From the IMG/VR virus record IMGVR_UViG_3300027901_000002, positions 35,015 to 99,014 of that record: a stretch of 64,000 bases of DNA, one strand, 5' to 3'. Below are positions 2,144 to 26,382 of this stretch, in pieces (position 1 is the stretch's first letter; each line of letters starts with the position of its first letter). The position numbers and the translations under genes were made by a program. A model generated the notes under the pieces. That model did not search any database and was not told the DNA's origin. It saw nothing but the letters and a program-made list of their open reading frames with translations. The DNA is from a virus.

Positions 2144-3214
2144 TTATAAAACCATATCACCAGTAAATCTTAATAAGGTCGCTTGTTTTTTTTCTTTCTG
2201 TTTCTTTTGCTCTTTTGTTTCCTTTGGTTTTGTTTTCTTTTTCTTCCCATGTAACCAATCCTCTTTCTCCTCTTTTGGTTTAAACTTAATAGGAGGAAAA
2301 TTCATTTTCGCCCTCTTATCGTGTTTTCCAAAATTAAGAAGAATCCCGTTAAGATATTTTTGTTTGTAGTCGTATTTGTATGTGTCTACAAAAGACAAAT
2401 TTTCGCTTGGTGAGACACTTGAATAAAATTTATGAAGGTTGTTTCCCAACCAATTTAAAATAAAGATGAAAGGATGTTCGCAATTCTCGAAATCTTTTTT
2501 CTCACATTTTCCAGTCAATATTTTGTAAGCAACTTGCTGAGAACTAAGCTTTTCTTCTTCTATTGGTTTAAAGGATTTAATCCCACTCAATATGTTTCTC
2601 AAAGTCACTCGCATGTCGGAGTCGTAAATATCCTCAATGTCTCCCTGCCAATCTGGATATTTTTTCTTAACGAATTGCTCTACGTCCTTTCGAGTAGGAG
2701 CTTGAAGTTTTAGCGGAGTCATTTGTTTTGCGACTGTTGCGTGAACCGTATCTTTTTTATTGACAATTACAATAAAAGGATTTTTGGATTCTTTTACGTA
2801 AAAATTAATGAGAGCATAAGCTCTCCAGTAAAAGGAGTCTCCCTCTACTACGAAGATAGTGTTCCTCGTTTGTAGAGGGAGTTGTGCAAAATCCTTCAGT
2901 AAATCCTCGGTGTTTCTAGGATAAGAGTATTTTATCTGCCACCCAATTTCGCTGGCAATAAGTCTTGGGAGTGAGGATTTTCCAACGCCATGTTCGCCAA
3001 ACAAAAGGATTTTTTCGTTATTAAGGATAAGCTTTCGCAATTGATTTCTTTGTTTTTCGTTTCCCGCGATTAAAAAACTCGCCAAAATTTTTTTGCCTGT
3101 GTAATTTTCGTAAGCTGTTGTGCATTCTTCAACAGTTGAATTACACAGGCAAGCGATTTCAGGTAATGTAAACCTATTCTGATATACTAATTTTTTTACG
3201 CGTTTTCCTAACAT
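2144..3214 (-). CDS. rfcL: Replication factor C large-subunit-like AAA+ clamp loader with C-terminal PIP box
   Basis: Walker A GEHGVGKSS; SKNPFIVIVN and DMRVTLRNI RFC-like segments; lysine-rich tail ending KKQATLLRF (archaeal RFC-L PIP box). The start is more likely ATG 3214 than GTG 3244, which lies inside the upstream RNA structure. Confidence 0.75.
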   Translation of the reverse strand: MLGKRVKKLVYQNRFTLPEIACLCNSTVEECTTAYENYTGKKILASFLIAGNEKQRNQLRKLILNNEKILLFGEHGVGKSSLPRLIASEIGWQIKYSYPRNTEDLLKDFAQLPLQTRNTIFVVEGDSFYWRAYALINFYVKESKNPFIVIVNKKDTVHATVAKQMTPLKLQAPTRKDVEQFVKKKYPDWQGDIEDIYDSDMRVTLRNILSGIKSFKPIEEEKLSSQQVAYKILTGKCEKKDFENCEHPFIFILNWLGNNLHKFYSSVSPSENLSFVDTYKYDYKQKYLNGILLNFGKHDKRAKMNFPPIKFKPKEEKEDWLHGKKKKTKPKETKEQKKQKEKKQATLLRFTGDMVL

Positions 3215-3224
3215 AAATTTAAGT

Positions 3225-3352
3225 AAGGAAGGTCGGATTTGCACCGACGCTTTCTTAGGTGATGGTCTCAGTAAAGAAAGTCTAAAATAGATAAGCGGAC
3301 GTCCTTACCATCATTACCGTCAGTAGGCTTTACGCTATCTATTTTCTTCCTT
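3225..3352 (-). ncRNA. tRNA-like cloverleaf RNA (non-canonical)
   Basis: 7-bp closing stem AAGGAAG/CUUCCUU; T-arm GUCGG-UGCAAAU-CCGAC abutting it; long arm AAAAUAGAUAGCG/CGCUUAUCUAUUUU; arm CUUUCUU/AAGAAAG. Confidence 0.6.
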
Positions 3353-3441
3353 TATTTTATTTTATTTTTAAATTTTCTTAACATAAAAATATTTTAAACA
3401 TTTATAAATGTGTATTCCCAGACGAAGCATTTTTATTATTT

Positions 3442-3741
3442 TCAGATTTTTAAAAATAATAAAATAATCAAAATTGAAGTCGCTACGACGTTTCCAATCG
3501 AGGTATATAAAATAAACCTAAGAGTAGAGTTAATTTTTTGCGTTACGTTTAGTGTGTCTTGTAAAGTATCTAAAAGTTCGAGTATATCTTCTTCCATACT
3601 TAAGAAGAGTCCTAGCTCGTACAAATCTTTTTTCGTGTAAGACGAATTACATTCTTTACAATAAAATCTTTCGTAAACCCAATTCATTTCAATGTTTTTA
3701 TGTATCGGACAATTCATTAGTTGTTCGCCATTATTAAGCAA
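3442..3741 (-). CDS. Zn-ribbon protein with C-terminal membrane anchor
   Basis: CPIH...CKEC and a hydrophobic C-terminus. Confidence 0.55.
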   Translation of the reverse strand: MLNNGEQLMNCPIHKNIEMNWVYERFYCKECNSSYTKKDLYELGLFLSMEEDILELLDTLQDTLNVTQKINSTLRFILYTSIGNVVATSILIILLFLKI

Positions 3742-3970
3742 AGCGTTATAATTACGATAGATACGCCTAAAAACAAGGAAATAACAAAAAGGGCGTATTT
3801 TTTAAGTTGGTTCAATTTTTTCGACCTTAAAAGTAGTTTCGTTATCGATTCTTTCTGGATCTTGATTCCAAATCCTTTTAGTTGCTTTTCTAATCGCTTC
3901 GCACTCGTCTTCCGCTTCTACTTCTACTCTGTAAATATCTATCAAAAATTCTTTTACTTCTACTTTATAT

Positions 3971-4414
3971 TTAACCACTCATATCCACTCTTATTTCCAT
4001 TATTATACCATCTTCGATTTTTGCGTAAACTGGATACAATCCATCTCCAAATCCAGAATCAAAAGATACAGCTAAACCATCGTGTCCAAGGTGGAAAGGT
4101 ATTTGTTTGTAACTTTTTCCTTTTTTGTGAGAGACGTAATTGTAAGAAAATTCAAATTCTGGTTCGTAATGTATTCGAATCCATTGTTTAAGATCGTGTA
4201 TTAAGTTATTAGGTGTTAATCCTAGTTCTTTTATTTCTTGTTCGTAGCTATCAAAATCTTTACCATATTTGTATATTTTACCGCTTTCTTTGTCTCGATA
4301 TTCTCTTATATCTTCGTATTCGCCTTTTTTCCACCATTTAAGATAAGAAGGATCGCATATTATTAACTGTCCAGAATCTACTCCAACTACGCCAATTTTT
4401 TTCCATTCTGTCAT
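3971..4414 (-). CDS. DUF4241-like protein
   Basis: VGVDSGQLIICDP and SGFGDGLYPVYA motifs. Confidence 0.65.
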   Translation of the reverse strand: MTEWKKIGVVGVDSGQLIICDPSYLKWWKKGEYEDIREYRDKESGKIYKYGKDFDSYEQEIKELGLTPNNLIHDLKQWIRIHYEPEFEFSYNYVSHKKGKSYKQIPFHLGHDGLAVSFDSGFGDGLYPVYAKIEDGIIMEIRVDMSG

Positions 4415-4552
4415 TTCGAGTCGGTAGAGTTCGTCAACTCAGTGTTTCACATGCATGTTACGCACACCCCTGATAGCTCCTTGCTGTTGATTGAGGTAAG
4501 TGCAATGAGCACGTCTCTCGCTCCTTAGGAGTCCGTCTTAGGAGGCACCGAT
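4415..4552 (-). ncRNA. BHB-bounded intron/excised RNA element D (138 nt)
   Basis: 5' A-CGAG-AAA-UCGGUG (4559-4546) pairs with 3' UACCGA-CUCG-AAA-U (4426-4413); GC-rich with internal hairpins. Confidence 0.75.
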
Positions 4553-4965
4553 TTCTCGTCTAACTCTTTTAACCATCTATTTATAAAACCATTTATTTCG
4601 TGAGTTGGAACGTTATATCCGCTTGGACTACCTTCAGACCATTTGTTTAAAATTCTTTGCGTTTCTAACAAAACTAGTTCTGCCATAGTTTTTCTTTCTT
4701 TCAGAAGGTGTTGTTTTCTACTTAATTCCGCTTTTTCGTACATTCCATCTCTATAAAGCATTCTTGCAAACTTCATTTTTTGACGCAATTCAAAAATACC
4801 TAAATAATGACGATTAAACATTTCCACCAAAAACCTAGAATTTCGTCCTCTTTTTTCGAGCATTTTAATTGCTTTGTAAGTTCGCAAAAAATTACCAATA
4901 CTTAGTTTAATTGGATTAGTACTTATATTACTACAAATTGATTCTATTTTTTCTCTTTTTGACAT
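4525..4965 (-). CDS. Hypothetical protein; predicted to end ...ELDEK* after splicing
   Basis: 146-aa ORF whose last codons run into BHB element D. Confidence 0.65.
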   Translation of the reverse strand: MSKREKIESICSNISTNPIKLSIGNFLRTYKAIKMLEKRGRNSRFLVEMFNRHYLGIFELRQKMKFARMLYRDGMYEKAELSRKQHLLKERKTMAELVLLETQRILNKWSEGSPSGYNVPTHEINGFINRWLKELDEKSVPPKTDS

Positions 4966-5180
4966 TATTTTTCGTCTAATTTAGATATTGGACAATTTTC
5001 CCAATCTTGTGAATTGTAACAACCGCTAGTACATCCTCCTCCTTTGCCACATATTTCTCCACCACCTCTTAAATCTACAAGATATGGACATGTTGTTTTA
5101 CAAATCCACGTAACATGGTTCCAAGGGCAGTTGTTTATGTATTCACAACCTATACAATAATCTACGCTATAACTTGGCAT
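4965..5180 (-). CDS. Small Cys-rich protein
   Basis: Multiple Cys residues; ATG at 5180 directly follows the BHB 3' site; TAATG overlap with the next gene. Confidence 0.6.
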   Translation of the reverse strand: MPSYSVDYCIGCEYINNCPWNHVTWICKTTCPYLVDLRGGGEICGKGGGCTSGCYNSQDWENCPISKLDEK

Positions 5181-5182
5181 AT

Positions 5183-5327
5183 ATCGAGTCGGCCTCAATT
5201 GAGATTTTTGCTCTGGCTTGGGAAATTTGCATGCTTTCCAAAATAGTTAAAAGCTATAAAGTTTATAATCCAATGGGATCTCTAGTCCCTGTCTACCCCC
5301 CAAGAGGCCGTCGCAGAGCTTACCGAT
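5183..5327 (-). ncRNA. BHB-bounded intron/excised RNA element C (145 nt)
   Basis: 5' A-CGAG-AAA-UCGGU (5334-5322) pairs with 3' GCCGA-CUCG-AUA-U (5193-5181); internal GCUCUG/CAGAGC stem and hairpins. Confidence 0.7.
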
Positions 5328-5413
5328 TTCTCGTTCGGCGGGATGTAGTGACAATACGCACCGTCCCTATGTGACCTTCCTTATTACTCTTACGAGCTAT
5401 GCCCTATACCGAT
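5328..5413 (-). ncRNA. Structured middle segment B (86 nt) between two BHB elements, itself closable by a BHB-like motif
   Basis: CUCG-AAA-UCGGU (5419-5408) can pair with GCCGA-A-CGAG-AAA (5339-5327); hairpins CUC-GUAA-GAG and GGGA...UCCC. Confidence 0.5.
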
Positions 5414-5545
5414 TTCGAGTCAGCTGGAGCTCCCAAAGAACTTTCGGTTAGAGACGATATACGCTTCAACCTCCCCTGCATCCACTCGTGTAGAGTCTTT
5501 CTCTCTACTCAGGATCTACGGCTGTCCCGCTTCGTTCACGCTGAT
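5414..5545 (-). ncRNA. BHB-bounded intron/excised RNA element A (132 nt)
   Basis: 5' A-CGAG-AAA-UCAGC (5552-5540) pairs with 3' GCUGA-CUCG-AAA-U (5424-5412); inner helix shows compensatory changes relative to the other copies; hairpin GUAGAG/CUCUAC. Confidence 0.75.
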
Positions 5546-5863
5546 TTCTCGTATTCTTTCTTGTCTTCTTTTCTTAATTTCTTCTAACTCACTTTTCGGA
5601 ACTGGTTTTAACTTTACGCCTTCCGCAAAAACCAATTTTAATTCTTTTACCAATTCTTGCTTTACGCCGCTAATTTTAGGAGCAAATTTTGGAGGTTTCG
5701 GAGGAGGGTTCCAAGTAGGACGAGAAATAAATCTTTTCGTCCCAACGAACCTAAGAAAACTACTTCTATTTCTCCCTTCCAATTCTGCGTTTTCGTCTAT
5801 TTTCTTTAGCTCCTCTTCATTAACCCAAAAACTAATTTTTATTGCTCTTTTTCGATGCGACAT
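5516..5863 (-). CDS. Ribbon-helix-helix DNA-binding protein with a Pro-rich linker and C-terminal helix
   Basis: ISFWVNEEELKKIDENAELEGRNRSSFLR is a CopG/MobC-type RHH pattern. Confidence 0.7.
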   Translation of the reverse strand: MSHRKRAIKISFWVNEEELKKIDENAELEGRNRSSFLRFVGTKRFISRPTWNPPPKPPKFAPKISGVKQELVKELKLVFAEGVKLKPVPKSELEEIKKRRQERIREISVNEAGQP

Positions 5864-5989
5864 AAGAAACCGATGTGTTAACCTTTAAGAATTGGTAAAT
5901 AAATTGCTGTTAATAATATAAACGCAAGTAAATGTACGACAACCCAAAATATAGCAATTACGATTGCTATTTTTTCGTCTTTATCCATT

Positions 5990-6229
5990 TTAACCCAAAT
6001 TTTTCAAAAAAATTACCAAACAATCTATCGAACAAAAATCAAGCCTACATTCGTAGTAGGTTCCTGTTGTTTTATTGTTTTCGTCTGAAATATTAATATC
6101 AAACGTGCAGTTATCCTTACTAGAAATAGTAATCCAACCAACACATTTTCTAACTTCGTCTAACGTTCCTTCTCTTCCACAACTATCGCATTTATATTTT
6201 GTTATTTTCAAACTTTTCGAACTTCTCAA
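5990..6229 (-). CDS. Small Zn-finger protein
   Basis: CDSC...FCSIDC (TRASH/MYM-like pattern). Confidence 0.55.
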   Translation of the reverse strand: MRSSKSLKITKYKCDSCGREGTLDEVRKCVGWITISSKDNCTFDINISDENNKTTGTYYECRLDFCSIDCLVIFLKNLG

Positions 6230-6575
6230 TTATTTTTTTTACTTCTGGATGAACTTCCATCGAAGCTCCAGCTCTAATTTTAGTTCCAGAAATAACTTTC
6301 ACATCTTCTGGAACTTCTACTAAAGAGTATCCAACTCCTCTTCCAATAGCAACCATTTCTATGTCTGGAATCGTAATAATTTTTACCATTCCAGTTAAAA
6401 TTTCGTCTTGATACACAACAGAAATCATTCTGTATCTAAGCCAAAGAGGATATTTTTCTTCGCTATCTCTTATTGCGATACAAACTGGCTTTCCGTTAAG
6501 TAAGAAAGAGTCTATAATTGTTTTATGTCCTAAATGGAAAGGAGACCACCGACCAATAAACAAATTATATTTCAT
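6192..6575 (-). CDS. Cytidyltransferase-family (HxGH) nucleotidyltransferase, NMNAT-like
   Basis: FIGRWSPFHLGH and ISGTKIR signature motifs. Confidence 0.8.
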   Translation of the reverse strand: MKYNLFIGRWSPFHLGHKTIIDSFLLNGKPVCIAIRDSEEKYPLWLRYRMISVVYQDEILTGMVKIITIPDIEMVAIGRGVGYSLVEVPEDVKVISGTKIRAGASMEVHPEVKKIIEKFEKFENNKI

Positions 6576-8190
6576 TTTGTAAAATCTCTTGTAAATACGT
6601 GTTCGCCGTGAAGTGTTCTTTCTATTGCGTTAAGATAAGTTGTTTCAAAAATAATCCATTTATCACAGTCCACACATTTATCGTTTTCTACTTTTCCTCC
6701 ACAAAAACAACAAACAGCGTCGTGGAAGTCGGCAATAATAATTCTTACATTAACAAGCATTTTTATTAATTCTTGTTTATCCATGTTGAAATATTCAACA
6801 ATTGGTAGATATTTTTCCATTTTAATCCTTGTCTCTATATATTTCAGCATAAGCTCGCATTGGCTTTATAACGTAAAAATAAAACGACAACTTGTTAAAC
6901 TTTGGATGTTTAACGTTTATTAAACATTCAGTAAGAACGTCGGCAAAAGTATCTAAATATATCGCGAGTTCTCCGCGAGACATGTCTTTAAAATTCTCGT
7001 GTCTGCTACCAACGCAAAAATTGTTACTAATTATTTTCATACCCTCCTCCTCAATTTTTATTTTATTTTTCGATTTTGTAAGCTAACTTCGCTTCTCTTA
7101 TTATTTCTTCGAATTTGTCCTTGTCTTCGTACCACCACAATATTGGCTCTGCACCAAAATCAGCAACTATTTGGTAGCCGCATACTGGACACTCCCATAA
7201 ATCAGCGTGAAAAATATAATCGTTTTCTTTGTAAACTATAACTCCGTTTCTTTTACAATCTAAATATACGCCACAATCTACGCAAATTTTTCTCCATTCG
7301 TTCATTTTATTTCCTCTTGTAATTTTTACACGTTCCTAAGTAAAAAGTTATAGGAATAAGGTGCTTTTTGCACCAATGATCTTTACAATGTTTGCAACTA
7401 AGACAAACTTTCTTCATATTTCGCTTTCCCACCGTTCTATAATTGGCGTAAGGTCTGCAAACCTTGCAATTAAGAAAGTAATTCCCACGACTGCATTTAA
7501 TATTGCAAGAAACAAGAAAATACTAAAAAAACTTTTTTCGTCGTTTTTTAATGTTTCCATAGCAAACCAAACACACACGCCACTCATTCCAAACATAAAG
7601 CAAATAGAAACAATTGCTATTATATTTACTATAAGTTCTCCAACTAACATTTATAACACCATATCGCTCGTTATGTTAATTTTTATGAATACTTCGTCGA
7701 AACTCAAATTTTTAGGCTCGTTTATTTCGGCACCTAAAATTTTTTTCGCGTCTTCCTTTTCCTCTTCGTCTAACTCGTAAAGTTGTTGATACACGTAAGA
7801 ATAAGTATCGTCTAATTTGAATTCCAAATAACATTGACCACTTGGTATAGCAATCGCCCTTACTTCAAAAGGTTGATTGCCGTAATAAGCTTCGATAAAT
7901 TTTTTTGTTTCGTAATAAAAAAATCTTATTCCTTTCTCTAAGAATATCACTACGTCGTCTTTTTGTTTATAATCAAAGTTAAAATTAACGAGTTTAAAAT
8001 TTCTTTTAATTATTATACCGTCTGGCGTTTTTGTTCTATCAACAATGTGATCTATTCCACAAAACCAAACTATGTAGTGATTTTTTTCCAGTAAATCTTC
8101 TTTTAAATCTTCTTCTTTGTATCCCCAATAATTCACGAGGACTTTCTTTACGCTTTCAGGGATCATCGTCTTCAGTTTTAACCAAACCAA
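6572..8190 (-). other. Cluster of small hypothetical CDSs (6572-6850, 6822-7040, 7063-7305, 7414-7650 membrane, 7651-8190)
   Basis: Closely spaced minus-strand ORFs, several with CxxC pairs. Confidence 0.6.
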
Positions 8191-8309: not shown

Positions 8310-9380
8310 TTAGGTTTCATAAAATTCTGCCTTTAAGTTATTTTTTGTTTTTTTTAATTTCATTTCGTATTTTGGATTTATTAACCCTTTTAACAACAAG
8401 CCATCAATATCGTAAATTTTACACGCGTTTTCTATTATTGACGAATATTCGCATTCTTTTAAAGCTTCTTCGAAGATATTGTCTTTAAAACCAAAATAAG
8501 AAAAAATTGTTTTTAAAATTTCTTTTGTTTCGTATATCCTTTTTCTAAGAGTTCGAACGTCGCAACCAACAATTTCACATAAATCCTTTTGCGTTACGCC
8601 GAAATTTTCGCTAGTTAAAATATAAATACAAGCGGCGGCTTTAACAATTGGATTTCTAAATAAAGTAGAGGAACCTATTGCTTCCTCTATTTTTAAAATA
8701 TTTTTTATGAAATTTTTGCTTGCACAACAGACTAAAAACTCTTCTCTTGGAGATAAGCATATTCCGCTCACTATTTTAGTGACAAAAGTTTCTGGTTGTT
8801 GTTGTTCTACTTTTAAGTTTAAAATCGTAATTAATCTCGAATAAAATTGTTTTATTTTCTTTACATCGCATTCTATTTTCTCAAAATCGAATAAAGTGTA
8901 AGGAAGTTTTTGTTTTTTTATTTCTAAATACGCTATTCCTTGCGCTACAATTTCAAGTGAAACCTTACCTCCACCTCTAAAAATGTTGGTTGAGGAAATT
9001 TCATTTAATTTACATATTTTAATGAAGTTATAAAACGCCGAAGCGTAAAAATCTTTACTTAAACCAAGAAGTTCAATTATCCTCTTAAGTTCTTTTTTGA
9101 TTACAGATTCCCTTTTATCCTTCCAATCGTAATAGTATTTTTTTAAAGCTCTTTTTAAATTAGGATTTTTGCATTGTTTAATGTTTATTTTCGTTCTCTT
9201 GTTTATACCTTTTAAAAATGTAGACCTATTTCTTTCTTTTTCTATTGCCGAGTTGTCTTCTAATTGTTGAGGAGGAGTGTAATCAATCGGTTTATCTTCA
9301 AAAACCAAGCCACAGTTAGTACAAACATCTATTCTGTAAGATTTTTCTCCACATTCTGGACACCACGTCATAATCCACAC
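8310..9380 (-). CDS. tfb: Transcription initiation factor IIB (TFB) homologue
   Basis: N-terminal Zn ribbon CPECG...VCTNCGLV; two cyclin-like repeats; AAACIYI and GVTQKDLCEIVGCDVRTLRKR helix-turn-helix. Confidence 0.85.
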   Translation of the reverse strand: MWIMTWCPECGEKSYRIDVCTNCGLVFEDKPIDYTPPQQLEDNSAIEKERNRSTFLKGINKRTKINIKQCKNPNLKRALKKYYYDWKDKRESVIKKELKRIIELLGLSKDFYASAFYNFIKICKLNEISSTNIFRGGGKVSLEIVAQGIAYLEIKKQKLPYTLFDFEKIECDVKKIKQFYSRLITILNLKVEQQQPETFVTKIVSGICLSPREEFLVCCASKNFIKNILKIEEAIGSSTLFRNPIVKAAACIYILTSENFGVTQKDLCEIVGCDVRTLRKRIYETKEILKTIFSYFGFKDNIFEEALKECEYSSIIENACKIYDIDGLLLKGLINPKYEMKLKKTKNNLKAEFYET

Positions 9381-25470: not shown

Positions 25471-26382
25471 TTAAATCTTATTTAACAATAAATTGTTGTC
25501 TTCTAATAACTTTAAAAATTCTTTTGGACGCGTTCTATTTAAATGTTCTTTTCCATTTCCAAAATTTCGCGCCAAAAATCTTAAATAATCCATTATAGTT
25601 CCTCGAGTAAGATAACGCCACTGTTCTTCGTCTCCAGAAAAATCCTTTATGTAAAGTTCGTGGTTAAATTTAACAGCAACAATATGATAGTCTCTATACC
25701 AACTTCTTTGTTTAAAGAAGTAAATTGTTCCTCTGATTCTAAGCCACATTGTAAATGATGTATACCACGTATCGGCTATCTGGCGAAATCCCTCGTCGAT
25801 TCGAGTGTGTATTTCTAACGCTTTTCTTCTTCTTTCCATTTCTTTATCGTACGCTTCTAATTGAGACATTTTATCTCTTAAGTAAGGGGAAGCAGATATT
25901 TCTTCTGGAGTAAAACCAAATTTTTTGTAAAATCTCCAACCGTCGTAAGTCGACGGGCTCGGAATGAAATAATCTATTAATTTTTTGTTTGCAATATATT
26001 TTTCGTCTATTTGTTTTATCAAAAATTCTTTGTATTTTGGATTTGCCAACGACAATTCTTTTAACAAAGGCCACGACAAACTACTATGCAGCAAACGACA
26101 ATCGCAATCGTGCTCTATCCACGCTTGTAAATTAGAACAATGTCCCCAAAATTCGTCTTCTGGAGGAATTTTAAATTGTGTGGCTTGATATTCTGTTTGA
26201 TATGTACTCAAATCGTCTATCGACTCTATTTTATTTATTTTGTCGAAATTGCTTGGAGTGAGAACTACCAATAAATATTTACACATGCTTATGTACTTAT
26301 CGTTTATGTAAATATTTGTTTTTTTGCCTTCTAATTTAACTTCCATTTCTTCAGTAATTTTATAACATAATGATTCTGTCAT
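25471..26382 (-). CDS. Protein with Lokiarchaeia-type N-terminal domain
   Basis: KLEGKKTNIYIND...CKYLL...ESIDD...IPPEDEFWGHCSNLQAWIE...RLLHSSLSWPLLKEL resembles a domain I recall from Lokiarchaeia proteins, often LRR-fused. Confidence 0.7.
   Translation of the reverse strand: MTESLCYKITEEMEVKLEGKKTNIYINDKYISMCKYLLVVLTPSNFDKINKIESIDDLSTYQTEYQATQFKIPPEDEFWGHCSNLQAWIEHDCDCRLLHSSLSWPLLKELSLANPKYKEFLIKQIDEKYIANKKLIDYFIPSPSTYDGWRFYKKFGFTPEEISASPYLRDKMSQLEAYDKEMERRRKALEIHTRIDEGFRQIADTWYTSFTMWLRIRGTIYFFKQRSWYRDYHIVAVKFNHELYIKDFSGDEEQWRYLTRGTIMDYLRFLARNFGNGKEHLNRTRPKEFLKLLEDNNLLLNKI

Follow-up and report, generated by a model that had tools for sequence, protein, structure and literature searches.

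The locus and its genes

The stretch of DNA analysed here, hereafter the window, comprises 64,000 nucleotides (nt), i.e., bases 35015-99014 of a complete 99,014-bp IMG/VR virus record (IMGVR_UViG_3300027901_000002), which has direct terminal repeats and was obtained from marine sediment. On the minus strand of the window, which is the strand of all the neighbouring long open reading frames (ORFs) up to position 26,382, three short segments (E1, E2, and E3) and the spacer between the first two (Emid, which may be counted as a third cassette of its cluster) are bounded by ends that can pair in the manner of a bulge-helix-bulge (BHB), the motif on which the archaeal tRNA-splicing endonuclease EndA acts. 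Together with two elements of a related virus, they are read from the letters as a small family of BHB-bounded cassettes of 72-145 nt, which are GC-rich, have unrelated interiors, and lie at gene junctions, in the setting of a putative leftward operon of small regulatory-type genes of an archaeal tailed virus (Table 1).

The virus has genes for a large terminase, a Mu-type portal, and a baseplate J protein, and a TFIIB/TFB-like protein is encoded at 8310-9380 on the minus strand of the window. Given the presence of a TFB-like gene beside those of the terminase, portal, and baseplate J protein, the virus is taken to be a tailed virus of an archaeon. Among the protein-atlas clusters, those nearest to the viral TFB include Promethearchaeota, which is a lead only. 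The host is possibly an Asgard archaeon; a published head-tailed virus of Asgard archaea has a TFB along with many zinc-ribbon proteins (PMC13700489). Neither an EndA nor an RtcB gene was found in this virus, so any processing would be carried out by the enzymes of the host.

Table 1. Cassettes, predicted cut sites, and flanking genes. Cassettes are given as predicted introns, from the third nt of the 5' bulge through the second nt of the 3' bulge; hyphens separate the paired and bulged segments.
Feature	Window coordinates	Strand	Length and GC	Description
Cassette E1	5545..5414	minus	132 nt, GC 0.52	A-CGAG-AAA-UCAGC ... GCUGA-CUCG-AAA-U; AAA bulges; inner helix UCAGC/GCUGA
Emid, spacer or third cassette	5413..5328	minus	86 nt, GC 0.49	CUCG-AAA-UCGGU ... 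GCCGA-A-CGAG-AAA; AAA bulges; inverse closure
Cassette E2	5327..5183	minus	145 nt, GC 0.44	A-CGAG-AAA-UCGGU ... GCCGA-CUCG-AUA-U; bulges AAA and AUA; one U-G inner pair
Cassette E3	4552..4415	minus	138 nt, GC 0.51	A-CGAG-AAA-UCGGUG ... UACCGA-CUCG-AAA-U; AAA bulges
5' half-site of E1	5540..5552	minus		A CGAG AAA UCAGC; predicted cut 5546/5545
Shared half-site, E1 3' end and Emid 5' end	5412..5424	minus		GCUGA CUCG AAA U; predicted cut 5414/5413
Shared half-site, Emid 3' end and E2 5' end	5322..5334	minus		A CGAG AAA UCGGU; predicted cut 5328/5327
3' half-site of E2	5181..5193	minus		GCCGA CUCG AUA U; predicted cut 5183/5182, 2 nt ahead of the ATG at 5180
5' half-site of E3	4546..4559	minus		A CGAG AAA UCGGUG; predicted cut 4553/4552
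3' half-site of E3	4413..4426	minus		UACCGA CUCG AAA U; predicted cut 4415/4414; 4414 is the A of the downstream ATG
G3a		gene strand of G003	87 nt	UUAAU-GCUG-AAA-U-CGGUUG ... CGACCG-U-CAGC-AAA-AUUAA
G3b		gene strand of G003	72 nt	AAU-GUGG-AAA-UUGGUGG ... CCACCAA-CCAU-AAG-AUU
Upstream ORF, ribbon-helix-helix (RHH; NikA-like)	5516..5863	minus	115 aa	last 10 codons run into E1
Small Cys-rich ORF	4965..5180	minus	71 aa from the ATG at 5180	immediately downstream of E2
Orphan ORF	4525..4965	minus	146 aa	last 4 codons and stop within E3
DUF4241-like ORF	3971..4414	minus		ATG begins at the third nt of the E3 3' bulge

Bulge-helix-bulge geometry of the cassettes

The common ends of E1, E2, and E3 read A-CGAG-AAA-UC(A/G)G ... 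C(U/C)GA-CUCG-A(A/U)A-U. An earlier reading of this DNA (the sequence-only reading) had pointed to three minus-strand segments with such ends (5414-5545, 5183-5327, and 4415-4552), which on re-reading were found exactly as described. The 11-12-nt end motifs are present only at these sites in the entire 99-kb genome, the GC content of the cassettes is 0.44-0.52 versus 0.335 in the genome, and a 9-nt flank, ACGAGAAAT, is common to three copies. E1, Emid, and E2 follow one another directly, and this cluster consists of three units with four identical-looking half-sites.

In the BHB of the pre-tRNA, nucleotides 1 and 2 of the anticodon pair with the intron inside the central helix (PMC4090602), and the 5' strand therefore has the order outer helix, central helix, bulge, and inner helix. 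The 3' strand has the order inner, central, bulge, and outer, with the cut following the second nucleotide of the bulge. The same order and handedness were found in all six units (E1, E2, E3, Emid, and the two elements of the related virus, G3a and G3b), of which Emid departs in that its 3' strand has a surplus unpaired A where the inner helix meets the central one, and the true BHB geometry put forward by the sequence-only reading is borne out under this definition. The opposite strand of the same DNA has the mirror order, which is not the EndA substrate, and would have A-C mismatches in place of the G-U pairs of E2, E3, Emid, G3a, and G3b. Given the handedness and these G-U pairs, the motif is valid only on the mRNA-sense (gene) strand.

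The central helix has exactly 4 bp in 6/6 units, formed by CGAG/CUCG three times and by CUCG/CGAG, GCUG/CAGC, and GUGG/CCAU (with one G-U pair) once each, and the two bulges of 3 nt on opposite strands are present in E1, E2, E3, G3a, and G3b. The intron helix (h') has 5-7 bp in all units, and the exon or outer helix (h) reaches no more than 1 bp in E1-E3, where the value of approximately 1 bp given beforehand holds, whereas it measures 5 bp in G3a, 3 bp in G3b, and 5+5 bp in Emid. Under the BHB classes of a recent preprint (10.64898/2026.10.13.758758), which are based on at least one flanking helix with a minimum of two contiguous pairs, E1-E3 are assigned to HBh' (h' of 5-6 bp, h of 1 bp), and both G3a and G3b to hBHBh'. 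The minimum-energy single-sequence folds close every unit of the window through the 4-bp helix, a bulge of 3 nt, and the inner helix. When flanks of 150 nt were included, the closure probability was 0.96-0.98 for E3, 0.95 for G3a, and 0.97 for G3b.

Only the ends are conserved. The interiors of the cassettes have no detectable similarity to one another (all z below 1), and they gave no match to anything else in six virus genomes or to GenBank phages. Rfam returned nothing at the gathering score in the window and, at E values of up to 10, junk only in 3800-6200 and in the locus of the related virus, so that no C/D box or other known RNA was recognised in the cargo by these searches, and no tRNA was found around the cassettes by ARAGORN. 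Scans for the exact ends in collections of viral, genome, and metagenome contigs produced matches only in high-GC or bacterial DNA, which were judged unrelated, and their number in the genome contigs was close to that expected by chance.

E1 (132), E3 (138), G3a (87), G3b (72), and the E1-Emid-E2 block as a whole (363) have lengths divisible by three, unlike E2 (145) and Emid (86). No cassette (window 4415-5545; L042 14959-15131) is open in-frame, and the multiples of three may be a coincidence (roughly 1 in 20).

Elements of a related virus and covariation

Five related virus contigs (G001-G005) were reached via the terminase, and each was read whole. One of them, G003, has two tandem GC-rich elements, G3a and G3b, on the gene strand between two small Cys-rich ORFs. 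They occupy the syntenic place, i.e., downstream of the TFB gene, approximately 0.7 kb past the homologue of window 7063-7305. Both elements retain the AAA 5' bulge, the U that follows it, and the BHB geometry. In neither does the central helix match CGAG/CUCG on either strand, yet its two strands are still complementary. Compensatory change in the CGAG/CUCG helix of homologues, on which the sequence-only reading had been staked beforehand, is thus found in this relative.

The pairs were counted by a script that sets every 5' end against every 3' end: cognate ends form 4/4 central pairs, and ends taken from different helix classes form 1-3. Double changes are found at 3/4 central positions, and the inner helix has a double change from A-U to G-C. 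The putative BHB assignment passes the comparative test that is available.

Single-protein searches for the locus with two flanking ORFs found nothing, those for homologues of the 146-aa orphan ORF and the RHH protein returned only the queries themselves, and profile scans with the TFB and RFC-like proteins found no further relatives in the viral contig collection. When the locus was compared with the relatives by BLAST, there was no significant match (best E of 0.004, in short low-complexity stretches), and there was none among the GenBank phages.

The selectivity of the motif was assessed with a filter for A-rich bulges and at least six G-C pairs in the central and inner helices, which returned exactly E1, E2, E3, G3a, and G3b in five genomes (approximately 400 kb, both strands) and 0 matches in six dinucleotide-shuffled sets, and which, having been chosen after the elements had been seen, shows selectivity and gives no clean P value. 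The remaining GC-rich BHB look-alikes all lie within long ORFs. The AAATCGGT sites of G004 and the BHB-like matches of G001 and G002 were rejected, given their position inside coding sequence. It is quite likely that the cassette ends represent a selected RNA structure of the BHB type.

Gene context and consequences of removal

The elements lie on the same strand as all of their neighbouring genes in both viruses. E1 and E3 start 10 and 5 codons (stop included), respectively, ahead of the stop of the upstream ORF, and E2, G3a, and G3b are intercistronic, with both G003 elements being located after a stop codon. All the flanking ORFs are complete unspliced, and the removal of the elements does not restore a protein as it does in cbf5. 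Given this, the view of the segments as mRNA introns stands in part: they are bounded by a BHB and are placed on the gene strand, but they interrupt no gene, and the term "intercistronic BHB cassette" is more accurate, since no gene is split.

The precise removal of E3 yields GAC GAG AA/A TGA, by which the orphan ORF ends in ...ELDEK, with its TGA overlapping the ATG of the DUF4241-like gene (ATGA); the unspliced orphan ORF ends four codons later. Stop/start overlaps of 4 nt are present at other junctions of the genome, for example at 771/774, 1828/1831, and 6572/6575. The removal of E1 alone, E2 alone, or all 363 nt of the cluster affects the RHH protein in no more than its final few residues, and full removal results in ...RIREIYAKL-stop, which overlaps the start of the Cys-rich ORF. 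On the exon side, it is plausible that the effect would be either the restoration of tight translational coupling or the removal of a structured block before the next start.

The contigs of four other DNA runs had identical sequence, E3 included, with no empty-site variants. In a different sediment sample, an 82-nt contig agrees with the final part of the RHH gene (5558-5590) and diverges at 5558 into a sequence ending in ...TAAAATGCCATG. Read on the minus strand, the continuation is TTAAGAAAGGAGGTGAAATAAAATGCCATG, in which a stop codon precedes an ATGCCA start that resembles the one of the Cys-rich ORF. This contig may derive from a relative that has no E1-E2 cluster and whose RHH gene would be followed directly by an ORF starting with ATGCCA; its source was not found in the viral contig collection.

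Proposed mechanism of excision

In the mechanism proposed here, four exon nucleotides (CGAG) of the polycistronic transcript would pair with the last four paired nucleotides of the intron (CUCG), which would leave two A-rich bulges of 3 nt on opposite strands. The EndA of the host would then cut after the second nucleotide of each bulge, and the host ligase RtcB would both circularise each cassette and join the exons; at E3, for example, the joining would bring back the ATGA overlap ahead of the DUF4241-like gene. The removal of a cassette may, in addition, tune the translational coupling of the downstream gene. This complete model of EndA/RtcB excision, in which cleavage, ligation, and circles are all deduced from the letters, is given a probability of about 0.6.

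In the E1-Emid-E2 cluster, every cut is expected to leave the same ...NNNN-AA / A-UCGG... ends. As every ligation would recreate NNNN-AA/A-UCGG, any order of removal would leave a usable site, and the 363 nt could in principle be removed stepwise.

The predicted exon junctions are ACGAGAA/AUGACAG, ACGAGAA/AUAUAUGCC, and ACGAGAA/AUCGGUAUAGG, or, in longer form, GACGAGAA/AUGACAGAAUGG for E3, AUACGAGAA/AUCGGUAUAGGG for E1 only, CCGAACGAGAA/AUAUAUGCCAAG for E2 only, and AUACGAGAA/AUAUAUGCCAAG for the whole cluster. The predicted junctions of the circles are CUCGAA/AUCGGUG, CUCGAA/AUCAGCG, and CUCGAU/AUCGGUA, with the longer forms ACCGACUCGAA/AUCGGUGCCUCC, GCUGACUCGAA/AUCAGCGUGAAC, GCCGACUCGAU/AUCGGUAAGCUC, and GCCGAACGAGAA/AUCGGUAUAGGG.

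Since no ORF needs splicing and the cargoes are unrelated, we regard the cassettes either as selfish introns that are tolerated or as exchangeable vehicles of small RNAs.

The surrounding accessory region

The complete related virus G002 is without the entire segment that matches window 3244-6192, which holds the RHH gene, the cassettes, the Cys-rich ORF, the orphan ORF, the DUF4241-like gene, and a tRNA-like RNA. At 69303-69472, G002 has, after the homologue of window 6192-6575, a gap of 170 nt that is followed by the RFC-like gene. The window segment 3244-6192 is a hypervariable accessory region.

Around this region, the gene order at the TFB gene is kept in G002 and G003, in which the TFB-like protein is conserved with 38-53% identity, and there are many small Cys-rich (zinc-ribbon-like) ORFs in the vicinity. 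The protein of window 7651-8190 has three relatives, all of them from short contigs. In the related virus G004 (65.8 kb), an open frame of 411 aa matches the zinc-ribbon domain of the TnpB/Cas12f type at G004:C1:13637-13852 (PF07282, 47 bits), which suggests an element of the IS200/IS605 type in this relative.

A strongly structured RNA is found on the minus strand at window 3224-3352, directly upstream of the RFC-like gene (2144-3244). Its folding energy is -39.5 kcal/mol versus -25.4 in shuffles (z = -3.9, with 0/200 shuffles as good), and it has a terminal stem of 7 bp and an arm of 5 bp with a 7-nt loop, GUCGG-UGCAAAU-CCGAC, that resembles the T-arm of a tRNA. It was recognised by neither ARAGORN nor Rfam, and the matching 170-nt gap of G002 is AT-rich and without this structure.

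Weighing the excision model against its alternatives

Several observations weigh against excision by EndA and RtcB. In the ensemble of the whole cluster, the closure of Emid, with its extra unpaired A, is favoured (0.58), and those of E1 and E2 drop to at most 0.02, because E1 supplies GCUGA (3' inner strand) and E2 supplies UCGGU (5' inner strand), which pair, as do GAGCU and AGCUC, so that the outer helix of Emid (5+5 bp) is made from the ends of E1 and E2; these structures are mutually exclusive, yet share the same four cut sites. With an outer helix of 1 bp, E1-E3 might not be cut by a strictly specific EndA. The fold energies of the elements are no better than those of shuffles (z of +0.1 to -1.5), which also leaves unsupported the stability that had been attributed to the circular non-coding RNAs. 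When the G-C content is ignored, the AAA-U signature is found 46 times in five genomes versus 36-49 times in shuffles, and the choice of the G-C filter after the fact counts on the same side. Moreover, covariation rests on four helix variants, as only two genomes carry the elements, any selection for removal is hypothetical, since no gene needs splicing, and the virus itself has genes for neither enzyme. The observation from which the sequence-only reading started is confirmed, and its interpretation is partly supported.

One alternative is that EndA does cut the BHB structures, which would serve as processing sites only, for the separation of mRNAs or their decay, with no productive joining of the exons and with the excised pieces as by-products. 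The position of the elements exactly at gene boundaries, where no ORF needs rejoining, agrees with this, as does the pure processing role of BHB sites in rRNA precursors (PMC7714728), and cutting without joining would give a leaderless downstream mRNA that begins at the A of the AUG, which is possible in archaea. In the known cases, however, ligation of the RtcB type follows EndA cleavage for exons and introns alike, and precise joining produces an ATGA overlap that resembles a functional operon junction, so we regard processing alone as unlikely. A comparably low probability is given to structured RNA or DNA elements that EndA leaves untouched, such as protein-binding sites, RNA stabilisers, or attenuators, in which the closing stem would be no more than BHB-like. 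BHB-like shapes are indeed frequent by chance in AT-rich DNA, and the short outer helices of E1-E3 would be no surprise in such elements; but six units with unrelated interiors retain the offset 3-nt/4-bp/3-nt arrangement, the correct handedness, and compensatory changes, two offset A-rich bulges would be superfluous in a generic hairpin, and no Rfam family matches.

Mobile elements at the level of the DNA, such as miniature inverted-repeat transposable elements (MITEs), palindromic elements derived from IS200/IS605, or GC clusters, would make the end complementarity a transposition signal, and they would account for GC-rich inserts in a hypervariable region that is entirely missing from G002, for the 9-nt flank shared by three copies, and for the cassette-free relative suggested by the 82-nt contig, with a TnpB-like gene at hand in G004. 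Unlike any transposon family, however, the copies have no shared interior sequence, and a family of transposons or MITEs is excluded by their dissimilarity to one another, to six virus genomes, and to GenBank phages. Terminal inverted repeats are lacking, the ends being offset and in part flank sequence, and the handedness and G-U pairs are strand-specific. No Y1 transposase was found in G000-G004, the TnpB match exceeds the family cut-off only in G004 (not in G000 or G003), and the DNA from other samples is identical, E3 included, with no empty-site variants, all of which make such an origin quite improbable. The last alternative, that of a chance resemblance among unrelated GC-rich spacers, draws on the frequency of the shape itself. 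The bare BHB shape is common in AT-rich genomes, so that the shape alone proves nothing: with 8 pairs, there are approximately 3,500 matches per strand per 99 kb, and the shape is found in some 2.2e-4 of random boundary pairs, a rate of about 2e-4 that applies to thousands of such pairs per genome. The ends of 12 nt are nevertheless identical in three elements, the shuffles give 0 matches under the G-C filter, and a second virus has the shape with different, complementary helices at the syntenic spot; chance is thus an explanation to which we give hardly any weight.

Relation to known systems

The literature searches found mRNA introns of the BHB type only in cbf5 (PMC2738675) and in the 5' untranslated region (UTR) of HVO_1309 (PMC7714728), and none in the transcripts of archaeal viruses, in agreement with the sequence-only reading, which knew of no described viral system of this type. 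What is new here is a known enzyme-substrate motif in a new setting, its tandem arrangement, and its interchangeable cargo.

The BHB intron of the crenarchaeal cbf5 gene was reportedly described by Watanabe in 2002. The intron of the crenarchaeal cbf5 pre-mRNA is likewise of the EndA type and lies in a protein-coding transcript (Yokobori 2009, PMC2738675), but it splits the coding sequence and its removal is required for the protein, whereas the viral cassettes lie at the ends of ORFs or between them, and their removal is not required. A closer likeness is offered by the BHB intron in the 5' UTR of HVO_1309 of Haloferax volcanii, which was confirmed by the sequencing of circular RNAs (circRNA-seq) and EndA cleavage in vitro (PMC7714728). 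There too, a BHB-bounded segment lies in a non-coding part of an mRNA and interrupts no ORF, and its removal by EndA, with the formation of a circle, is thought to affect downstream expression. The HVO_1309 intron is, however, a single cellular intron of 46 nt that was shown experimentally, whereas those presented here are predicted, have 72-145 nt, are found more than once in each virus and in part in tandem with half-sites in common, and belong to viral polycistronic messages.

The introns of archaeal tRNAs, such as that of tRNA-Trp, which holds a C/D box small RNA (PMC4090602), have the same motif and predicted cut positions, and their cargo is freed as circular RNA. They range from 11 to 129 nt (PMC4090602), with the viral cassettes overlapping the upper part of this range, but the latter have no surrounding tRNA and no recognised C/D box cargo. 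In the rRNA operon, BHB sites also flank successive units of one transcript, which are freed as circles, although the viral units are short, unrelated, and placed between protein genes, with closing helices of 9-11 bp in place of the long processing stems. Finally, the mobile mini-introns of the tRNA and 16S rRNA genes of the Thermoproteales are BHB introns without a homing endonuclease gene, which appear at new sites and form families of similar sequence, whereas the viral cassettes are alike only at their ends.

Implications for archaeal viruses

A far-reaching extension of the excision model, which we offer as a doubtful conjecture, is that tailed viruses of the Asgard type use the tRNA-splicing machinery of the host as a general delivery platform, with a fixed BHB frame and interchangeable cargoes that would be freed as circles and might serve, for example, in regulation or as decoys against the defence of the host. 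The same cassettes might pass from viral to host transcription units and back, giving BHB introns a route into Asgard genes.

The known substrates of BHB splicing are tRNA, rRNA, and two cellular mRNAs. Were it to act on viral polycistronic messages too, archaeal viruses would depend on, or exploit, the tRNA-splicing enzymes of their hosts, and there would be virus-encoded circular RNAs, a class that is undescribed for archaeal viruses in the literature searched. The tandem arrangement, with a half-site regenerated at every cut, would in that case represent a compact form of recursive splicing catalysed by proteins, and the combination of a fixed frame with unrelated cargo bears on how new BHB introns arrive, a question raised for Asgard archaea (10.64898/2026.10.13.758758).

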